64,000 nucleotides of DNA from Planctomycetota bacterium (GTDB lineage: Bacteria > Planctomycetota > UBA1135 > GCA-002748355): contig JAWKUM010000003.1 in assembly GCA_041398545.1 (NCBI GenBank), forward strand, positions 222,385-286,384. The letters are read 5' to 3'. Of the stretch, positions 29,477 through 59,417 are shown piece by piece. Made by a program: the position numbers and the translations under genes. The notes under the pieces were generated by a model that saw only the letters and a program-made list of their open reading frames with translations, did no database searches and was not told the DNA's origin. Position 1 is the stretch's first letter; each line of letters starts with the position of its first letter.

Positions 29477-29542
29477 GGCCGGGCCCCGGGGCCCCCCGGC
29501 AGGCCCTGGATGTCAGGGTTGTGTTCGGGTAGCGTCCCGGCC

Positions 29543-30994
29543 ATGGAAAGGGCTTCCCCCGCGACCGGGCGGGGGGGAGCGCGACGGCGCTCCCCGACCC
29601 GGTCGGCGCTGCTCCTGCACCTCGACATCGACGCCTTCCTGGCCTCGGTCGCCCAGCTCGTCGAGCCGTCCCTGCTCGGCCTGCCGGTCGTCGTCGGCAG
29701 CGGCGTCGTCGCCTCGCGCTCGTACGAGGCCAAGGCCCGCGGCGTCGAGACCGCGATGCCGATCGCCGAGGCCATGCGGCGCTGCCCCGGCCTCGTGCTC
29801 CGCGAGGGCGACGCCTTCGTCGCCGAGCGCTTCCGCCGGCGCGTCGCGGCGATCCTCGGCGGCTTCGCGCCGCTGGTCGAGGTCGGCTCGCTCGACGACA
29901 TGTACGCCGACCTGTCGGGGCTGTTCGCCGAGGAGCTGTGGCAGGCGCCGCCCGACGCCACGGGCCTCGCGCCGCTCGACCACGCGCTGGCCGCGTGGAC
30001 CGCGGCGCTGCGCGCGCGGGTGCGCGGCGAGACCGGCCTGTCGGTGTCGCTCGGCCTCGGCCCGACGCGGACCCTGGCGCGGCTCGCGACCGACCGGGCC
30101 AAGCCCGGCGGGACCTTCCGCGTGCGGCCCGGCGAGGAGCGCGCCTTCCTCGACCCGCTGCCGGTCGCCAAGCTGCCGGGCGTCGGGCGCCGGACCGCGG
30201 CCGAGCTCGAGCGCTACCGCATCCGCACGGTCGGCGAGCTGCGCCTCGTCGACCGCGCCCTGCTCGAGGAGTGCTTCGGCCGCCGCGGCGGCGACCTGTG
30301 GCTGCGCGCGCGCGGGCTGCCGGCCGGCTCCAAGGACCTCGTCGTGCACGGCGGCGCCGAGCACGGGCGCGCCGGCGGGGCCTTCGGCGCCGACGGCCTG
30401 GCCAAGGAGCTGTCGCGCGAGACGACCCTGGTCGAGCCGTCGGCCGACCCCGGCCTGCTGCGCGCGATGCTGTCGTACCTCGTCGACCGCGCGAGCCACC
30501 GGCTGCGCGGCCAGGACCGGCTGGCCGGCCGGCTCGAGCTGCGCCTGGCGGCCTGGGCCGCCGAGGCGGCCGCCCGGCCGGCGCTGCGCCGCGCGCGCGC
30601 AGCCTCGAGTGGGCGCGCCGGCGCGGCGGCTGCGCGAGCGAGCGCCGGCGCGGCGATGAGCTCGTCGCCGTGGCCCTGGCCCTGCTCGACGAGGCCGTCG
30701 GGTCCCGGCGGCTGCTCGCCGGCGGCGCCGGCGTGTGCCTGCAGGACCTCGAGCCGGCGCACCCCCGCGCCAGGGGCCGACCTGTTCGCGTTGCTGGTCG
30801 CCGAGGGCGGGGCGGGCCTCCGCGGCGACGGCCTTCAGGCGCTGCGGGCGCGCCGGCTCGACGAGAGCCTCGACGCCGTCCGCGCACGCCACGGCTTCGG
30901 CGCCGTCGTCGCCGGGGCCTCGATCGCCCTGCTCGGGAGCCTGCCGCGCACGCGCGACGGCTTCCGGCTCTACGCCCCGTCCCTGAGCCTGTGA
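29543..30994 (+). pseudogene. Y-family DNA polymerase (DinB/ImuB-like) with an out-of-frame central segment
   Basis: Track ORF 29510..30994, starting at MERASPATG. Motifs: LHLDIDAFLASV, SLDDMYADLSG, LPVAKLPGVGRRTA. Between ~30540 and ~30780 the plausible sequence (DELVAVALALLDEAVGSRRLLAGGAGVCLQDLEP) lies in another frame (track ORF 29938..31434), then returns to the original frame (GADLFALL...). Confidence 0.7.
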
Positions 30995-33900
30995 CCGCCC
31001 TGCTGCGCTGCCTGAGCCACTTCAGCTTCCTGACCGGGACGCTGGCGCCGAGCGAGCTGTGCTCGCTGGCCGCGCGCCACGACGTCGCCCACGTCGGGCT
31101 GTGCGACTGGGGCGGTTGCATGCAGCCCGCTGTTCGCGGCCGAGGCCGCCCGCGTCGGCCTCCACGCCCTGCACGGGGTCGTGCTCGGCGGCGGCGCCGG
31201 CATGGTCACGTCATACCTGGCGACGAGGACGGCCTCCTGCTCGCTCTGGCCGCGTCGTGTCGGACTGGCCGGCTCGAGAGACCTTCGGCGTGGCCGACCG
31301 GGTCGCGGCCCTGGTCGACCTCGTCGCCGCCAACCGCGACGGCCTGTTCGTGCTGGCCGAGCGCGTCGCCGGGCTGCTGGCCGCGCTCGGGCCCGACGAC
31401 CTGCGCGTGGCCCCGCCGCTGCAGCCTGGCCTGACCGCCTGCGCCCTCGGCGAAGGCCGCGGCGCGCGCCCGCGCTCGAGCGTCGCGGACGGCGGCCGGC
31501 CCGGGCGGGCGCGCCCGCGGCCGACCCCGGGCGACGACGTCGCGGCCGACGCGCGCAAGGTCCTCGACCTGCCGCGGCCCGACCCGCGGCACCGCCTGCT
31601 GGCCTTCGCCGAGGCCCGTGGCGTGGTCGCCGTGGCCGCGCCCTGGTCGCCTACGGCGGGCCGGCGACCGCGCGCGCCACCGCCTCGCGACGGCCTGCAA
31701 GAAGGGCACGCTGGTCGACCTCGTCGGCGACCGCGCGCTGGCCCTGCGCGGCTCGTTCTTCCCGACGCCGGCCGAGCTCCGCGAGGGCTACGCCGACCGG
31801 CCCGCGGCCCTGGCCGAGGCCGAGCGCCTCGCCCTGCGCTGCACCCTCGACCTGTCGCGGCCGCGGCGCATCGTGTTCCCGTCGGCCGCCGGCGCCCTCG
31901 GCGGCGACCCCGCCGAGGCCGAGGGGCGCGCGGCCGCGGTCCTGCGCGCCCGCGCCGAGGCCGGGTCTTTTCCGCGGCTGTTCGATCGCGCCGGAGCGCC
32001 GGCCCGGGAGCCGCCCGGCCGAGGCCCGGCGCCGGCTCGAGCAGGAGCTCGGCACGATCGCCGAGCTCGGCTTCGCGCCGTACTTCCTCGTCGTCGACGA
32101 GATCGTCCAGCTCGCCCGCGCCCACGGCATCCCGGTGTTCGGCCGCGGCTCGGCCGCCGACAGCCTGGTCGCGCACCGCCTCGTCACCGACGCCGACCTC
32201 GCTGCGCTACCGGCCAGCTTCGAGCGCTTCCTCAACGCCGACCGTTTCCGCCGCGGCGAGGGCGACCCGCTACCTCGACGTCGACCTCGACTTAGCGCGC
32301 CGCCGCGACGAGCCGTCGGCCTCGTCGCGCGCCGCTTCGATGGCGACCGCGTCGCGCTGCTGTCGACGGTGCCGACGCTCGGCTTCCGCGCGGCTCGCGC
32401 GAGGTCGCGCGGGCCCAATGGCCTGCCGCGCCGCTCGACGAGGCCGACCGCTGCGCCCGCGGCCTGCCGCGGACGCTCGACCCCGCCACGGTCGCCGCCG
32501 CCGCGCCGGCGACCCGCCGCTCGCGCCGATCGCGGCCCGCGCCGGAGTTCGGGCGGCGGCTCGCCGGCGCCGCCGGGCCTCGAGGAGCGCCGCCGCGAGG
32601 CGCGCATGCTGCGCGGGGCCTTCGCGCTCGTCGGCGCGCACCGCTGCCTCGGCCTGCACCCGGGCGGGACCGTGCTCGCGCCGGTGCCGGCCCGCGACCT
32701 GATGCCGCTCGAGCGCGCGGCCAAGGGGCTCGTCTGCGTGCAGTGGGACAAGCACGTCGCCCCGCGCATGGGCCTCGTCAAGATCGACCTGCTCGGCAAC
32801 CACGGTCTGTCGATCTTCGAGGACGCGCAGCGCGAGCTGCTGCGGCTCGGCGTGTCGCTCGAGGCCGTCGAGGCCCTGCGCGAGACGCCCGAGGAGGACC
32901 CGCAGGCGGCCGCGCTGGCCCGGGCCGGGCGCACGCTCGGCGTGTTCCAGGTCGAGTCGCCGGGCATGCGCGCGCTCCTGACCCGCGTCGACGCGGGCCG
33001 CTGCGACGACGTGATCCGCGCGCTGGCGCTGATCCGGCCGGGCCCGGCCGGCTCCGGCATGCTCGACCGCTACGTGCGGCGCGTGCGCGGGCTCGAGCCG
33101 ACGCCGGCCCTGCCGCCCGGCCTCGGGCCCGTGCTCGGCGACAGCCGCGGCGTGATGCTGTACCAGGAGGACGTCATCCACGTGCTCGCGGCCCTGACCG
33201 GGCTGCCGCTCGGCCAGGCCGACCTGCTGCGCCGCGACCTCGGCAAGGAGTGCCGCGGGGCGGGGCGACGGGCCGGTGCCGGCGACGGGCCGGCGACGGC
33301 CCGCTTCCACGCGCTGTGCGCGGCCAGGGCGTCGACGCGGCCACGGCCGACGCCTTCTGTCCAGCTCGCCCGCTTCGGCGGCTACTCGTTCAACAAGGCC
33401 CACGCCGTGACCTACGGCCGCCTGGCCTGGCGCATCCTGCGGGCCAAGGCGCAGCAGCCGGCCGCGCTGTTCGCGGCGATCCTGGCCAACGACACCGGCT
33501 ACCACGACAAGCGCGTCTACGTCGAGGAGGCCCGCCGCCTCGAAGCGTGCCGGTGCTCGCGCCCTGCGTACCGCTGGCGCTCGGCTTCCGCGCCGAGCGC
33601 CAGGGCGGCACCGGGGCCGCGCGCTGCGCGTCGGCCTCGGCGAGGTCAAGGGCCTGCCCGAGGCCTTCGGCGAGGCCTCGTCGCCGACCGCGAGGACCGC
33701 GGGCCGCATTTCGCCGCCGACGAGCTCGTCGGCCGGGTCGGGGAGCGCGGCCTGACGGTCGAGGAGGACTGGATCGAGCGGCTGATCCTCGTCGGCGCCT
33801 TCGACCTGCTCGAGGGCACGCGGCCCGAGAAGCTGTGGCGCTTCCGCGTCGGCTTCGGCCGGCGCCGCCGCCGCGCGGCCGCGCCCGGCCCCGCCGGCGG

Positions 33901-34348
33901 CGAGCTGTTCCCCGGCGCGCTCGAGCGCCGCGCGCCGATCATCCCCTGCCTGCCCGAGTATTCCGACGCCGAGAAGGCGCGCCTCGAGGTCGAGCTGCTC
34001 GGCTACCCGATCCGCGCGCACGCGATCACGTACGCGCCGCCGCTCGACGACGCCGGCGGCTGCCTGCCGCTGAGCGAGGTCCCGGCCCACGTCGGCCGGT
34101 CGGTGCAGGTCCTCGGCTGGCTCGCGGCCACGCGCCGCCACCGCACGCGCGGCGGCGAGTGGATGTGCTTCCTGACCCTCGAGGACGCCGGCGGCATGGT
34201 CGAGGCCGTGCTGTTCCCGGCGGTGTTCCGGCGCTGCGGCGGCGAGCTGGCCGGCCAGGGCCGCTACCGCCTGCGCGGCCGCGTCGAGCTCCGCGAGGGC
34301 GCCGTCGCCCTCCACGCCGACATGCTCGAGCGCGTCGACGGGGAGTGA
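30991..34348 (+). pseudogene. dnaE2: Error-prone DNA polymerase III alpha (DnaE2-like), heavily frameshifted
   Basis: GTG at 30991 overlaps the upstream stop (GTGA). Pol III alpha motifs are scattered over all three + frames: LSHFSFLTGT, ELGTIAELGFAPYFLVVDEIV, GRGSAADSLV, FERFLN, RYLDVDLDL, GVFQVESPGMR, GGYSFNKAHAVTYG, ALRVGLGEVKGLPE, and an intact C-terminal OB region (...WMCFLTLEDAGGMVEAVLFP...). I traced more than ten frame switches by eye. Confidence 0.8.
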
Positions 34349-52949: not shown

Positions 52950-53891
52950 ATGCGCAGGAGGGCACGGAGGGGCAGGATCGCGATCATCGGGGCCCTCGTG
53001 GCCCTGCTCCTGTTCCTCGCCTGGCTGCTCGAGCTGCCGGGCGGGACCTGGCCCAAGCCGGGGGACGGCGGCACGGCCAAGGTCGGCGGCGGCGCGGGCG
53101 GCGGGGCCGCCGGCGAGCAGACCGCCGAGACCGGCCCGGAGCGCCCCGAGGCCGGGGGGACCACGGGAGCCGGCGGCGCGGCCGCTGCCGGAGGCGCCCC
53201 GGGTGAGCCGGACGCGGGCACCGGGCCCCGCGGCGGGGAGCCGTCGCCGGCCGGGCCACCTCCGGAGGACTGGCTGGCCGGTCAGCGCGAAGCCTTCCTC
53301 GGCCTGCTCGGGGACGACCGGGTCGGCGACGCCCGCGCCATCGTCGCGCGCCTGCGCGCCAACGGCCACCAGACCGCCCTGGACCTCGCCGCCGAGCTCG
53401 ACCGCGAGCTGATGCGCCACCTCCGACGCCTCGAGCAGGGCTTCCGCACGGCCTGGGACGGCGGGGACCTGGGCGCGGCCGAGGCGGCCCTCAGGCCGCT
53501 GCGGCAGGGCTTCCCGGAGCGGGCCGAGCTCCTGCTCGGCGGCCCGCTGCGCAGGGCCGAGGTCGGCGAGGACGAGCTCCGCGGGCTGGCCGCGGCCCTC
53601 GACGACGTGCTGCCGCGGATCCTCGACGCCGGCCGGACCCTCGTCCGGCTCGAGGGTCGCTTCGCCGTCGTGCGCGTGCCCGGGACCAAGGGCGGCCACC
53701 GCGACGTCAAGGTACCGCTGACCGACCTCGACCCGGCGACCATGTACCGGACCCTCGACGCGGCCGGGGCGCGGGCGCGGGCGACCGTGCTCGCGCGGCT
53801 CTACCTGGCCGACGACCGGCCGCTGGCCGCGGCGCTGGCGCTCAGGGGGCGGCTGAGCCTTCCGGAGGCGCTTCCGGATCCCGGCCGATGA
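52950..53891 (+). CDS. Hypothetical membrane-anchored protein
   Basis: MRRRARRGRIAIIGALVALLLFLAWLL (N-terminal anchor), a Gly/Ala/Pro-rich linker and a helical C-terminal domain. No motif recognised. Confidence 0.5.
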   Translation: MRRRARRGRIAIIGALVALLLFLAWLLELPGGTWPKPGDGGTAKVGGGAGGGAAGEQTAETGPERPEAGGTTGAGGAAAAGGAPGEPDAGTGPRGGEPSPAGPPPEDWLAGQREAFLGLLGDDRVGDARAIVARLRANGHQTALDLAAELDRELMRHLRRLEQGFRTAWDGGDLGAAEAALRPLRQGFPERAELLLGGPLRRAEVGEDELRGLAAALDDVLPRILDAGRTLVRLEGRFAVVRVPGTKGGHRDVKVPLTDLDPATMYRTLDAAGARARATVLARLYLADDRPLAAALALRGRLSLPEALPDPGR

Positions 53892-55935
53892 CGCGCAGGA
53901 ACACCAGGATCGCGACGGCCCCGAGGACGAGGGCGATCCACGGCGAGAGGCCGAGGCCGGCGACCGGGAGGTAGCCGAGGACCAGTGCCGTGGCCATGAC
54001 CAGGAGGGCGTAGGGGGCCTGCGTGCGCACGTGGTGGAGGTGGTCGGAGCCGGTCGCGACCGAGCTCAGCAGCGTCGTGTCCGAGATCGGCGAGCAGTGG
54101 TCGCCGAAGATCGCGCCCTCCATGACCGCCCCGATCGACAGGACGACGAGGCCGTACGAGCCGATGTCGGTCCCCGCCCCGAGCTCGTTGGCCATGAGCA
54201 CGACGTTGGGCAGCAGGATCGCCATCGTCGTCCACGACGAGCCGGTCGCGAAGGCCGCGAGGCAGGCGACCAGGAACAGGATGCTCGGCAGCAGCCAGTA
54301 GAGGTCGCGGGCCTGCAGGGCCAGGGCGCTGAGCCAGTAGCGCGAGCCGAGGTCGTCGCAGGCGAAGCCGATGCACCAGGCCAGGACGAGGATCGCGACG
54401 GCGAAGCCGAGCATGCGGGTGCCCTTGAGGCCCGTGACGACGACGTCGCCCGGTCTGAGCGCGCGGCCCAGCAGCGGCAGCAGGGCCGCGCCGAGCGCGG
54501 CGGCGGCCGAGCCGCAGAAGATCGCCCAGGCCGAGTCGGCCGCCCCGACGATCTCGACGAGCCGGCGGAAGCCGCCGAGCTCGGCCCAGGGGCCGTTCCA
54601 GTACCCGTCGCCGCCGGCGCCGAGGCTGGCGAGCCCGGACTGCACGATCAGGCCGATCGTCACGCCGACGAGGAGCAGGATCGGCACGAGGCCGTAGCTG
54701 GCGCGCGGCCGGACCCCCGGCGCGGGGCTGGCCATCTCCCCGGCCGCGCCGACCATCGGCCGGGCGTCCTCGGCCAGCGGCCGGCCGTCGCGTCGGGCCC
54801 GGCGCTCGGCCGTGAGCATCGGGCCGAACTCCCGCCGGGCCAGGATCGTCATCGCGACCATGATGATCGTCAGCAGGCAGTAGAAGCGCAGCGGCATCGT
54901 CTCGAGGAAGACCGAGAAGCCCTGGCCGTCGAGCAGGGTGCCGTCGGGGCGCCGCAGGCCCTCGAGCTGGGGCTGGAAGTACGAGATCTCGGTCGCGACC
55001 CAGGTCGACAGCGGGACGAGGCCGGCGATCGGGGCGGCCGTGGAGTCGACGATGTAGGCCAGCTTCTCGCGGGAGACGCGGAGGCGGTCGGTCAGGGGCC
55101 GCATCGTCGAGCCGACGACGATCGAGTTGGCGTAGTCGTCGAAGAACACGAGCAGGCCCATGAGCCAGGCCGTGAGCTGCGAGCTGCGCGCGCTGCGCGC
55201 CAGGCCGGCGACGAGCTCGACCATGCCCTCGATGCCGCCCGAGCGCGTCATCAACGCGACGGCGACCGAGAGCAGCACGACGAAGCCGAGCACGTGGAGC
55301 TGGAAGGTCTCGCGGAAGACCCCGGTCACGAGCCAGGCGTCGACGAAGTACGGGAGCCCGCCGAGCGGGCCCGCGTGCATCAGCGCGCCGAGCAGGACGC
55401 CGCAGAACAGCGAGGGGATCGTGCGCAGGGTCAGGACGGCGAGCAGGAGGACGAGGAACGGCGGGAACAGGCTCGTCCAGCCCGCGACCGCGGCCTCGAC
55501 CGTGACCGCCGGCAGCGCGCCGGCCTCGCGGCGGTCCTCGGCCGTCAGCGCGAGCCGCCCGCTGCCGGGCTCGTGGGCGAGCCGCAGCACGAGCGGCCGC
55601 TCGCCGCCTTCGACCGGCCGCAGCCACGCCGCGCCGTCGTCGCGCCCGCCCCAGCGGCGCTCGTAGCCGGCCTCGAGCGCCTTGCGCAGCTTGCCCTGGA
55701 CCGGGCCGACCGACGGCGGCGGTCCCTCGAAGCGGACCGGGACGGCCACGGGCGGGGCCTCGCGCCCGGCCTCGAGCCCGGCGAAGGCGTCGTCGAGGAG
55801 GTGGGCGACGATGGACTCGCCCTGGACCGCGAGGAGGTCGGGCTCCGCGGGGCCGGCCAGGCCGAGCAGGGCGAGCAGGAGCAGCACGCCGGCCGCGAGC
55901 AGGACCCGGATCCTCGGCAACATCCCGCGGAGCAT
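53842..55935 (-). CDS. Na+/H+ antiporter, NhaC family, with an N-terminal extracytoplasmic extension
   Basis: Polytopic membrane protein with the NhaC-type motif [23 protein letters not shown]. Confidence 0.8.
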
Positions 55936-56036: not shown

Positions 56037-56552
56037 GTGCCCGACATCCTCTACTTCACCCTGCTGTTCGTGACCCTCGTCGTCCTGGCGGCCATCCTCT
56101 GGTCGCGGCTCGGGCGGTACGAGGCGTACCTCCGCGACCTGCAGGGGATCCAGACCCTCAACGAGCGGCTCCGGGACCTCGTCGACGGGCTCGAGGGCCT
56201 CAAGACCCGCCGGGTCGAGGAGCAGCTCCTCGGCGTCCAGGACCTCCTCGAGCAGATCCGCAACGGCATCCAGCGGTCCCTGGACCGCCCGGCGGTCGTG
56301 CAGGAGCTCGTCGCCGCGCCGGCGGGCCAGCCCGAGCTGACGATCCACGACCTCGTCGAGGCCAAGCTGTTCAACCTCGGCTACCGCGAGGTCGTCATCG
56401 TCAACGACCTGGACGTGGCCGAGCCCGGCGAGCCGATCCGCGTCGTCGTCGAGGCGCGCAAGGACGGCGCGATCCACAAGGGCCACCTCGTGCTCAAGGG
56501 CCGCAGCGTCACCGAGGTGGACCTGCAGCCCGTGTTCGGCAGTTTTCCGTGA
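56037..56552 (+). CDS. Hypothetical membrane-anchored coiled-coil protein
   Basis: N-terminal TM segment [19 protein letters not shown], a helical region, and a C-terminal alpha/beta region. The stop is immediately followed by hexamer array A. Confidence 0.55.
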
Positions 56553-56702
56553 AACCGGAACCGGAACCGGAACCGGAGCCGGAACCGGAGCCGGAACCGG
56601 AACCGGAACCGGAGCCGGGACCGGAACCGGAACCGGGACCGGAACCGGAACCGGGACCGGAACCGGAACCGGAACCGGAACCGGGACCGGGACCGGAACC
56701 GA
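56553..56702 (+). repeat. Hexanucleotide tandem array A: 25 units, consensus AACCGG
   Basis: Counted by hand: AACCGG x16, GACCGG x5, AGCCGG x3, AACCGA x1, perfectly phased. One + frame reads (Glu-Pro)n and closes with TGA at 56705-56707. Confidence 0.95.
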
Positions 56703-56786
56703 AGTGAGAACGTTGGCCTTGGCAACAACCGCAGAGTGAGTCGGAATGGAAATCAAAGCTGAGGGAACAGCTCGATCCGGAGCAGC

Positions 56787-56942
56787 CTCCAGCTCCCGCT
56801 CCGTCTCCGGATACGGCTCCGTCTCCGTCTCCGGCTCCGGATGCGTCTCCGGTTGCGGTTCCGTCTCCGGATACGGCTCCGGATGCGTCTCCGGCTCCGG
56901 AACCGTCTCCGGTTCCGGTTCCGTCTCCGTCTCCGTCTCCGG
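56787..56942 (+). repeat. Hexanucleotide tandem array B: 26 units, consensus CTCCG(G/T)
   Basis: Units are CTCCGG/CTCCGT with variants TTCCGG, TTCCGT, ATACGG, ATGCGT, TTGCGG, AACCGT. It is related to array A by reverse complementation (CTCCGG vs AGCCGG; TTCCGG vs AACCGG). It ends 24 nt before the asnS start. Confidence 0.95.
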
Positions 56943-56966
56943 TCCCCACATCCATCGACGACCGCG

Positions 56967-58293
<1,327 letters not shown>

Positions 58294-58317: not shown

Positions 58318-58971
58318 TCAGCGGCCGGCGGACCTCCCAGCGCTCGGCGTCGCTCGGGCCACAGGGCGGCGAGCTCGGCCCGACTCGCGGCCGGGACCGG
58401 CGACGGCAGCGCGGCGAGGGCGGCGCCCAGCGCCTTGACCGAGGCCGCATCTGCGGCGCGCCCTGCTGATGCTAGAGAACGGGACCTCCTGGCCGGCGCC
58501 CACGAGGCGGCGTTCGAGGGGTCCAGGGCCATCTCGCGGACGAAGGCCATCTCCTCCCTGGCGCGGATCGCGAGGGCTGTGGAGGCCTCCTCCTGGCCCG
58601 GCAGCCAGCCGCGAGGACGGCCAGGCAGGCCTCCTGCGCCGAGGGGAAGCCGAAGGCGCACAGCGCGCTACGGCGCGGCTGCGCTCCGACAGGTCGAAGC
58701 GCGGGTTACGCCAGATCCCGAGCAGGAACGGGGCCGCGCCGACCTCGCCGCGGGCCTCGACGGCGTCGATCGCCCGCAGCAGGGGCAGGCCGGTGCCGGT
58801 CGCAGAGCTCGGGAAGTCCTGGCGGCCCGTGAGCGTGCCCGAGGGGCTGCCCGCGCATGCGGGGCCAGGGCGAGGAGGACGGGTCAGACCACGCCGCCCT
58901 GGGGAAGGTGGAGGGGCGGGCGGCCCTGGGGGCGGGACAGGGGCCCTGGTGGGGTGGTGCGCGGGCGACAT
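58318..58971 (-). pseudogene. Unidentified minus-strand coding remnant; frames inconsistent
   Basis: Coding-like stretches on the minus strand occur in three frames: GLPLLRAIDAVEARGEVGAAPFLLGIWRNPRFDLSE; ALCAFGFPSAQEACLAVLAAG; WLPGQEEASTALAIRAREEMAFVREMALDPSNAA; VKALGAALAALPSPVPAASRAELAALWPE. Family not recognised and boundaries uncertain. Confidence 0.25.
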
Positions 58972-59042: not shown

Positions 59043-59417
59043 TCAGGCCTCGCCGTCGGCCTCGGGGTCCTTCTCGCGGCGGCGACGGCTCGCGGCGACG
59101 CAGGCCAGGCCGGTGCCGACCAGGAGCAGGGTCGTCGGCTCGGGCACGGCCGGGGGCGGCGGGTCTTCGCCGTTGGGCCCGGGCTGCGGGCCCGGCGCGC
59201 CGCTGGCATCGAGGCCGGGGGTCGTCACCGGGGCGTCGACCGGTGCGGCCTGGGTGCCGCCGGTCGTCGGCGGCTGGAACACGCGGCCGTCGTCCTTGGG
59301 CACGTCGGTCGAGTCGGGGGCGGCAAGCGGGGCGGAGGTGCCCTTGTCATTGCAGCTCGACAAGGGCAGCAGCAGCGCAGAGACGAACGCGAGCTGATGG
59401 AGGAGCTTCATGGTCAC
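59043..59417 (-). CDS. PEP-CTERM sorting-domain protein (small secreted, Pro/Thr-rich)
   Basis: Signal/lipoprotein-like N-terminus MKLLHQLAFVSALLLPLSSC and C-terminal VPEPTTLLLVGTGLACVAASRRRR (PEP motif + TM + basic tail). Confidence 0.8.
   Translation of the reverse strand: MTMKLLHQLAFVSALLLPLSSCNDKGTSAPLAAPDSTDVPKDDGRVFQPPTTGGTQAAPVDAPVTTPGLDASGAPGPQPGPNGEDPPPPAVPEPTTLLLVGTGLACVAASRRRREKDPEADGEA

Follow-up and report, generated by a model that had tools for sequence, protein, structure and literature searches.

In the 64,000-nucleotide stretch of contig JAWKUM010000003.1 from a Planctomycetota bacterium (GenBank assembly GCA_041398545.1) analyzed here, hereafter called the window, the asparaginyl-tRNA synthetase (AsnRS) gene asnS is preceded by a 414-bp block (positions 56553 to 56966) that consists of two hexanucleotide repeat arrays, termed A and B, a spacer between them, and a 24-bp tail. 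The gene upstream of the block (56037 to 56552, plus strand) encodes a conserved 171-amino-acid (aa) protein that matches no Pfam family and has a hydrophobic helix at its N terminus; the G+C content of the gene at third codon positions (GC3) is 0.99, and its TGA stop codon (56550 to 56552) abuts the first unit of array A. The asnS gene itself (56967 to 58293, plus strand) carries the Pfam domains tRNA_anti-codon (PF01336) and tRNA-synt_2 (PF00152). A first-pass annotation, made from the letters of the sequence, had placed the arrays between a membrane-protein gene and asnS, and this location was confirmed: both arrays are intergenic, bounded by the 171-aa open reading frame (ORF) on one side and by the asnS ATG at 56967 on the other.

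Composition of the repeat block

Array A (56553 to 56702, plus strand) contains 25 hexanucleotide units with the consensus AACCGG (16 AACCGG, five GACCGG, three AGCCGG, and one AACCGA), and was detected by Tandem Repeats Finder (TRF) as a period of 6 with 24.8 copies and 90% matches. Array B (56787 to 56942, plus strand) contains 26 units with the consensus CTCCGG/CTCCGT (10 CTCCGG, five CTCCGT, two each of ATACGG, ATGCGT, and TTCCGT, and five singletons), detected by TRF as a period of 6 with 26 copies and 72% matches. The unique 84-bp spacer (56703 to 56786), which forms the loop of the predicted hairpin described below, spans exactly 14 × 6 bp, so that both arrays lie in a common hexamer phase; the 90-bp bin covering most of it (56670 to 56759) has a G+C content of 59%, compared with 71.5% for the window. 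The unique 24-bp tail (56943 to 56966, plus strand; GTCCCCACATCCATCGACGACCGCG) has no GGAGG-type purine run and abuts the asnS ATG. The unit counts given in the first-pass annotation matched exactly on recounting, and the lower-G+C spacer, the shared phase, and the reverse-complementary relationship of the units ((AACCGG)n to (TTCCGG)n and (CTCCGG)n to (AGCCGG)n) were likewise borne out. With a tolerance of one mismatch, AACCGGAACCGG has 26 occurrences in the window, compared with 0.41 expected; the search for other (AACCGG)n tracts in the 64 kb found nothing beyond the block save three isolated single hits.

The internal unit patterns of both arrays suggest slippage-type growth in multi-unit steps, since array A repeats the sub-pattern GACCGG-AACCGG-AACCGG three times, and array B shows higher-order periods of 30, 42, and 60 bp, the last at 91% in TRF. 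The earlier description of both arrays as long and pure holds for array A, with its 90% matches; array B is as long, at 72% matches.

Comparison of the junction across relatives

Loci of relatives were recovered through the upstream protein, yielding 11 orthologous loci from nine distinct relatives at 50 to 97% protein identity (L001 to L008 and L152 to L154); the sole source name given for the homologs of this protein is "Planctomycetota bacterium." In all 11 loci, asnS starts at −4, +12, or +30 bp from the end of the 170-aa gene that corresponds to the upstream gene of the window. Most relatives, at 60 to 66% identity, have a 12-bp purine-rich spacer (RSCGAGAGAGAM) before asnS, and one locus (L154) has a 30-bp gap. 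In the two closest loci (L001 and L002; 97% protein identity and approximately 96 to 97% DNA identity), which come from separate JGI metagenomes, the 170-aa gene and asnS overlap as ATGA (CCATGAGCG), and in the DNA alignment to these loci, positions 56553 to 56966 constitute one single 414-bp gap. Because the relatives keep a spacing of −4 to +30 bp and the alignment shows one gap, the comparison indicates that the block is a lineage-specific insertion. Since the two genes overlap or lie no more than 30 bp apart in all sampled relatives, they are presumably cotranscribed and translationally coupled there.

The start of asnS in the window (ATGACCGAACAA, encoding MTEQS) is of the ancestral type and is present in L154 as well. 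A TGA occurs at both ends of the block, the first as the upstream stop codon and the second within the ATGA that includes the asnS start codon, and the ancestral state of the junction was possibly the 12-bp spacer. As the TGA...ATGA arrangement is adequately explained by stop and start codons, a target-site duplication is not established.

The possibility that the arrays belong to a conserved low-complexity protein, raised in the first-pass annotation as grounds for reclassifying them as coding, found no counterpart in the relatives, which lack the arrays entirely. All 14 homologs of the upstream protein are 156 to 176 aa long and end at the same position without a repeat tail, and a tail of (EP)n or (NR)n on this protein was accordingly rejected. 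An N-terminal extension of AsnRS was rejected in view of the MT(E/F)Q start shared by the relatives. Specifically, extension from the GTG at 56549 is precluded by its distance to the ATG at 56967, which is 3n+1, and by a TGA in that frame, and extension from the in-frame ATG at 56841 would produce an (LR)n segment of a kind that no relative has.

Folding and regulatory signals

RNA spanning positions 56540 to 56975 is predicted to fold into one long imperfect hairpin in which array A pairs with array B, with a minimum free energy of −237.4 kcal/mol and a z score of −6.2 against dinucleotide shuffles. The arms are approximately 150 nt long and 72% complementary in every in-phase register, 67% being the level that any two in-phase arrays with this self-complementary CCGG core must reach. 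The first-pass annotation had proposed that the arrays could pair as a cruciform or as an RNA hairpin; the hairpin stands, but a DNA cruciform is unlikely, its extrusion being disfavored by the 84-nt loop and the 72% arms. In control folds, array A alone reached −100 kcal/mol and array B alone −72 kcal/mol. Replacing array B with a second copy of array A gave −226 kcal/mol, compared with −228 kcal/mol for the native A-spacer-B arrangement, and shuffling the order of units within the arrays left the energy unchanged (−227.9 ± 5.7 kcal/mol), while a true inverted copy of array A would fold at −390 kcal/mol. The block thus has strong folding potential with no sign of selected, register-specific pairing, because the A-spacer-A construct and the unit-order shuffles fold equally well.

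The same core accounts for the dipeptide readings of the arrays. Any two arrays of this kind will pair and will read Pro-X on both strands, since CCGG is self-complementary: a CCG-GAA (Pro-Glu) repeat is read from the opposite strand as CCG-GTT (Pro-Val), and a CCG-GAG (Pro-Glu) repeat as CCG-GCT (Pro-Ala). The translations proposed earlier, (EP)n for array A on the plus strand and (PE/TE)n for array B on the minus strand, are correct, and the inverted relationship of the arrays, their dipeptide readings, and the hairpin are three manifestations of a single property. As by-products of a unit with a palindromic CCGG, neither the hairpin nor the (EP)n/(PE)n readings imply design. This serves as a caution for screens based on sequence alone, in which inverted repeats, two-strand Pro-X readings, and a long hairpin would be automatic for CCG-G hexamers and should not be counted as three clues.

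Scanning for regulatory signals gave negative results. No sigma-70-type promoter consensus was found between 55900 and 57100, in a scan that covers the promoters of this phylum poorly; an Rfam scan of 56300 to 57200 returned two chance-level hits, far below gathering scores, and no known aminoacyl-tRNA synthetase leader (e.g., T-box); and no intrinsic-terminator consensus was found at the block. These results bear on the suggestion of the first-pass annotation that the block is a contingency or length-variable regulatory locus, in which slippage would alter the size of the hairpin or the spacing and thereby switch or tune asnS. In its favor, the arrays are long, array A is fairly pure, the unit patterns indicate past multi-unit slippage, and the block lies directly upstream of asnS, where the energy of the hairpin would scale with array length. 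The block resembles the phase-variable contingency loci of Neisseria and Haemophilus in having a long repeat tract beside a gene start. Tracts of such loci either lie in coding sequence and have a unit length not divisible by 3 or sit at promoter elements whose spacing they set. In contrast, a 6-nt unit (2 × 3) cannot shift the reading frame, the block offers neither a credible ORF nor a recognizable promoter setting, with no sigma-70 consensus, the pairing of its arms shows no sign of selected matching, and the relatives lack the arrays entirely. In addition, stochastic switching would be unusual for a housekeeping gene such as that of a tRNA synthetase. The contingency interpretation was therefore not upheld and is regarded as highly improbable.

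Distribution of related arrays

No second copy of the block is present in the 64-kb window, and the spacer is unlike the rest of the window and the fetched loci. An exact search with a 24-mer of the spacer gave 0 matches in 185,579 species genomes and 0 in 241 million metagenome records, exact look-up of the upstream protein of the window (with V or M as the first residue) returned no record, and no second sample carrying the block was found by these searches or by the metagenome search for the paired-array pattern described below. A plasmid BLAST search yielded only low-complexity matches to array B, and a literature search returned organelle-genome papers only.

A generic (RRCCGG)6 search proved too unspecific, with at least 120 viral matches. 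Single (RRCCGG)n arrays were found in more than 120 viral contigs, mostly as (AGCCGG)n with 6 to 26 units (L009 to L128 among the matches listed). Each viral array listed lies inside a long open frame in some phase (GS, SR, AG, PE, and PA readings), these frames being candidate genes only, and an inverted partner array accompanies none of the 120 single-array viral loci listed. The full structural pattern, an R-type arm followed after 100 to 130 nt by a Y-type arm, matched 12 genome loci, 11 metagenome loci, and 0 viral loci. These matches are heterogeneous. Two (L130 and L148) are X-Pro coding-like tracts, and one (L138) contains short hexamer-repeat hairpins after stop codons. The perfect palindrome (CCGGAG)4...(CTCCGG)4 at a contig start in a Microbacterium metagenome-assembled genome (MAG; L137, 9 to 169) looks like an assembler foldback artifact or a replicon end. 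A mixed GACCGG/CTCCGG array in Myxococcales MAG contig JADJGV010000013.1 (L136, 2640 to 2900, minus strand) reads (EP)n(VP)n in optimal codons; the two genes immediately upstream of it, which we take, by eye from an N-terminal motif, to be of the ExbD type, provide a TonB-linker layout, and the array probably encodes the proline-rich linker of a tonB-like gene that is frameshifted in this long-read assembly.

Five loci have an architecture like that of the window: L133 (3989 to 4153, Streptomyces), L141 (195 to 346), L143 (1820 to 1989), L145 (74 to 243), and L142 (233 to 392, with AACCGG/TTCCGG units). Each comprises two complementary hexamer-repeat arms on either side of a unique lower-G+C spacer, which measures approximately 100 nt except in L142, where it is short; they occur in unrelated high-G+C genomes or metagenome contigs, mostly outside high-GC3 open frames. 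A sequence family among them was considered and rejected, as their spacers resemble that of the window only at chance level. Judging from these comparisons, the paired-array architecture appears to recur rarely and independently, with no evidence of a sequence family.

This distribution was weighed against the possibility that the block is a mobile, foldback- or miniature inverted-repeat transposable element (MITE)-like, nonautonomous element, with inverted arms of tandem repeats and a unique core, that transposed into the junction. Consistent with transposition, the block is discrete, is absent from relatives that are approximately 96 to 97% identical, has inverted arms of some 150 nt and a TGA at both ends, and shares its architecture with the five loci from unrelated high-G+C genomes and metagenomes. 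Nevertheless, the lack of a second copy in 64 kb and of any exact spacer 24-mer match in the genome and metagenome collections, together with the chance-level similarity of the look-alike spacers and the absence of such a pair from the viral contigs, argues against a mobile family. Moreover, the CCGG cores can account for the complementarity of the arms, stop and start codons can account for the TGA/ATGA ends, and no transposase was linked to the block. Transposition of such an element is therefore considered unlikely.

Among characterized bacterial sequences, the repetitive extragenic palindromic (REP) sequences and bacterial interspersed mosaic elements (BIME), the enterobacterial repetitive intergenic consensus (ERIC) sequences, Correia elements, and other MITEs provide the closest analogy for how the block could act. 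Like these palindromic insertions between co-oriented genes, the block is a palindrome between two plus-strand genes for which a stable RNA hairpin is predicted; such palindromes, the block included, would be transcribed as stable hairpins and could alter the expression ratio of the flanking genes. The block differs in its microsatellite arms and in being single copy as far as is visible, whereas those groups are multicopy conserved families, the MITEs having defined terminal repeats and target duplications. The foldback (FB) elements of eukaryotes are similar to the block in that a unique central loop lies between long inverted arms composed of short tandem repeats, but they are eukaryotic, multicopy, and demonstrably mobile, and none of these features is seen for the block.

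Coding potential of the block

The genes of the window have GC3 values of 0.98 to 0.99 and codon scores near +1, and they largely avoid several codons, among them those that dominate the Pro-X readings of the block: GAA accounts for 4% of Glu codons and GTT for 0% of Val codons, with TCT at 1%, GCT at 1%, GAT at 2%, and GGA at 3% for their respective amino acids. In the Pro-X frames of the block, GC3 is about 0.5 to 0.6 and codon scores are negative, figures that are suggestive but not decisive because in repeats one unit is counted many times. Array A is read as GAA-CCG in (EP)n and, on the minus strand, as GTT-CCG in (VP)n, and array B as CCG-TCT, CCG-GCT, CCG-GTT, and CCG-GAT in its P-S, P-A, P-V, and P-D readings. 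The only frames that fit the codon usage well are (NR)n/(RF)n for array A and (PE/TE)n/(LR)n for array B. Each plus-strand frame of the block contains one stop, that of the Pro-X frame being the TGA at 56705 to 56707 with no start codon after it, and the minus-strand frames that stay open terminate only beyond the conserved upstream gene, which they cross in antisense.

Two small ORFs are possible on the plus strand, neither of which is considered a gene or has a counterpart in relatives. A 52-codon ORF (56549 to 56707) reads GTG-AAA-(CCG-GAA)n-CCG-AAG-TGA; its GTG overlaps the upstream stop codon (GTGA) in a coupling-type arrangement, its Glu codons are almost all GAA, and its match to the Pfam family Trypan_PARP is below threshold (27.6 bits versus a cut-off of 100). 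A 74-codon ORF (56746 to 56970) starts at an ATG in the spacer, continues as (SG/SV)n, and ends in HIHRRPR, with a TGA that overlaps the asnS ATG (ATGA), again as in coupled genes. By inspection, its spacer part uses the rare codons GAA, AAA, GCT, GGA, ACA, and CGA, and its synonymous-codon score in array B is 0.01, compared with approximately 1.0 for real genes.

These readings suggest an alternative in which the block is displaced or new coding sequence, either a copied X-Pro linker fragment of the TonB type ((EP)n...(XP)n) or a translated 52- or 74-codon ORF. Both arrays do read Pro-X in one plus-strand frame with a single stop between them, a fully open minus-strand frame reads (PE/TE)n, 28 aa, and (VP)n, and both small ORFs have start and stop overlaps of the translational-coupling type; elsewhere, the TonB-linker-like array of L136 follows directly on its ExbD-type genes as assigned by eye, and the tracts in L130 and L148 look like real X-Pro sequences. 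The likeness extends to the (Glu-Pro)n-(Lys-Pro)n spacer of TonB and to the EP repeats of trypanosome procyclin. As CCG-G units necessarily read Pro-X on both strands, however, these readings do not provide independent evidence, and the codons required are nearly absent from the genes of this genome. No TonB or other domain was found enclosing or flanking the Pro-X readings of the block, no relative has an ORF at this position, and no X-Pro tract of more than four units occurs in a native high-GC3 frame of the window. A Pfam scan of the block gave only sub-threshold low-complexity matches, and the minus-strand frame runs for 540 nt antisense through a conserved gene. The spacer peptide of the minus-strand frame has no candidate homolog; that of the plus-strand frame has one hit among 1.84 billion representatives (E = 1.7e-4), to a protein with a five-fold internal repeat; each copy matches at approximately 10 of 27 residues, so that the hit adds up several weak matches and does not define a family. 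Thus, neither spacer peptide has a credible homolog, and a coding origin or function of the block is judged quite unlikely. Within the relatives and databases compared, the block lacks conserved coding capacity.

Integrity of asnS and sequence quality

Reading frames in asnS were traced by GC3 phase, by alignment to L001, and by tblastn with the AsnRS sequences of L003 and L004. The first approximately 568 bp of the gene contain no indels relative to L001, with 12 synonymous versus 2 nonsynonymous codon differences. From position 57535 onward, at least seven small indels occur over approximately 700 bp, many of them ±1 changes in short runs, with repeated changes of reading phase. The damage extends into a convergent 213-aa gene, fragments of which (58524 to 58863) lie in three frames, while the neighboring genes for the NhaC-type antiporter, the 171-aa protein, and the PEP-CTERM protein are intact. 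The damage forms one continuous tract across two genes and leaves the 5′ portion of asnS untouched, a distribution that makes locally poor sequence somewhat more likely than uniform pseudogene decay. Should the indels be genuine, the insertion would go together with a loss of asnS.

A second apparent cluster of frameshifts was noted at approximately 29.5 to 34.3 kb, where stretches in frame alternate with stretches out of frame and the GC3 phase flips at about 30601, 30755, and 30973. The genes affected, judged by eye, are presumably an imuB/dinB-like Y-family polymerase gene (29510 to 30994, plus strand) and a dnaE2-like gene (31181 to 34348, plus strand).

These observations raise the question of whether the organism really contains the block, in this length and with this content, or whether sequencing or assembly produced an artifact. 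Regional clusters of small indels affect conserved genes of the window, the pattern of damage in asnS resembles a poor-sequence patch more than uniform decay, and low-complexity arrays are hard to assemble. One look-alike, the perfect contig-end palindrome of L137, is of the type that assemblers produce. On the other hand, the junctions are clean, preserving both the upstream stop codon and the ancestral-type MTEQS start of asnS seen in L154, and the alignment to relatives is free of indels for 560 bp on one flank and for over 1 kb on the opposite flank. Foldback chimeras are exact copies, whereas the arms of the block are 72% complementary and differ in their unit spectra; in addition, the arrays carry structured variant patterns, not noise. 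The clean junctions, indel-free flanks, 72% arms, and structured variant patterns argue that the arrays themselves are real, and the artifact explanation is considered quite improbable.

Proposed origin and possible consequences of the insertion

Taken together, the block is probably a young, noncoding, slippage-built, lineage-specific insertion that uncoupled asnS from its upstream gene. In the sequence of events proposed here, the block would have entered, or taken the place of, the very short junction that separates the conserved 170-aa membrane-protein gene from asnS, and the two CCGG-core hexanucleotide microsatellites around the 84-bp core would have grown by multi-unit replication slippage. 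The near-zero spacing that presumably couples asnS to the upstream gene would thereby have been destroyed and the purine-rich 12-bp spacer of most relatives removed. The result would be a self-pairing untranslated leader of approximately 400 nt before asnS, from which lower or uncoupled asnS expression would be expected. Growth of array A in situ from the ancestral 12-bp spacer was also considered and rejected, as the resemblance between the end of the array and this spacer (AACCGAAGTGAGAAC to ACCGAGAGAGAC) is at chance level (311 of 2,000 shuffles).

Several points weigh against this interpretation. The effect on asnS is purely inferred, and no target-site duplication can be demonstrated. The block is found in one genome only, so that its reality rests on the assembly, and the two frameshift clusters (57.5 to 58.9 kb and approximately 29.5 to 34.3 kb) indicate that local sequence quality is possibly poor, which makes arguments from single stop codons or from the exact length of the block weaker. 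Finally, arguments from codon usage are weaker for repeats, and a young expansion need not mirror long-term codon bias.

A different account is that the block represents an undescribed kind of high-G+C insertion, a foldback with complementary microsatellite arms of CCGG or CCCGG core around a core of approximately 100 nt, which would arise in or enter gene junctions and silence or uncouple the downstream gene through a very large RNA hairpin. The loci cited for it are the five look-alikes (L133, L141, L143, L145, and L142), and in a specific version, the 74-codon ORF would restore the coupling of asnS by translation through array B. Such a class is regarded as very unlikely.

The block resembles the hexanucleotide microsatellites of bacteria, described as simple sequence repeats (SSR) or variable-number tandem repeats (VNTR), which share its head-to-tail 6-bp units, some 25 copies, and variants propagated in blocks, a pattern that replication slippage would be expected to leave. 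The block differs from them in having two complementary inverted arrays around a unique core, in an intergenic position and in one lineage. It is thus a striking lineage-specific event, a microsatellite or intergenic palindromic insertion of unusual paired form at an unusual site. It is apparently noncoding, young, junk-like DNA, and nothing observed here marks it as a regulatory switch. If the sequence is real, microsatellite-rich DNA has appeared abruptly inside a very tight bacterial junction (ATGA or 12 bp) where coupling is conserved across the clade, placing approximately 400 nt of strongly self-pairing untranslated RNA before an aminoacyl-tRNA synthetase gene. The block could be used for studying the loss of translational coupling and the origin of paired repeat arrays in high-G+C genomes.

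Neighboring genes and the start of asnS

The upstream gene and asnS are flanked by genes for an NhaC-type antiporter (53842 to 55935, minus strand) and a PEP-CTERM protein (59043 to 59417, minus strand), and a further neighbor encodes a giant 1,398-aa PQQ/PEGA protein. The order of antiporter (minus), 170-aa gene (plus), asnS (plus), PEP-CTERM gene (minus), and giant PQQ-PEGA protein gene (minus) is kept in relatives where contigs reach (L003 and L004).

The first codons of asnS (56967 to 56981) include A-ending codons that are rare in the genome (ACC GAA CAA TCG); the corresponding codons of the closest relatives are AGC GAG CAG GAG. This segment contains five differences in 14 nt, compared with a divergence of approximately 3% elsewhere, and these differences may stem from the insertion itself or from selection for weaker structure around the start.

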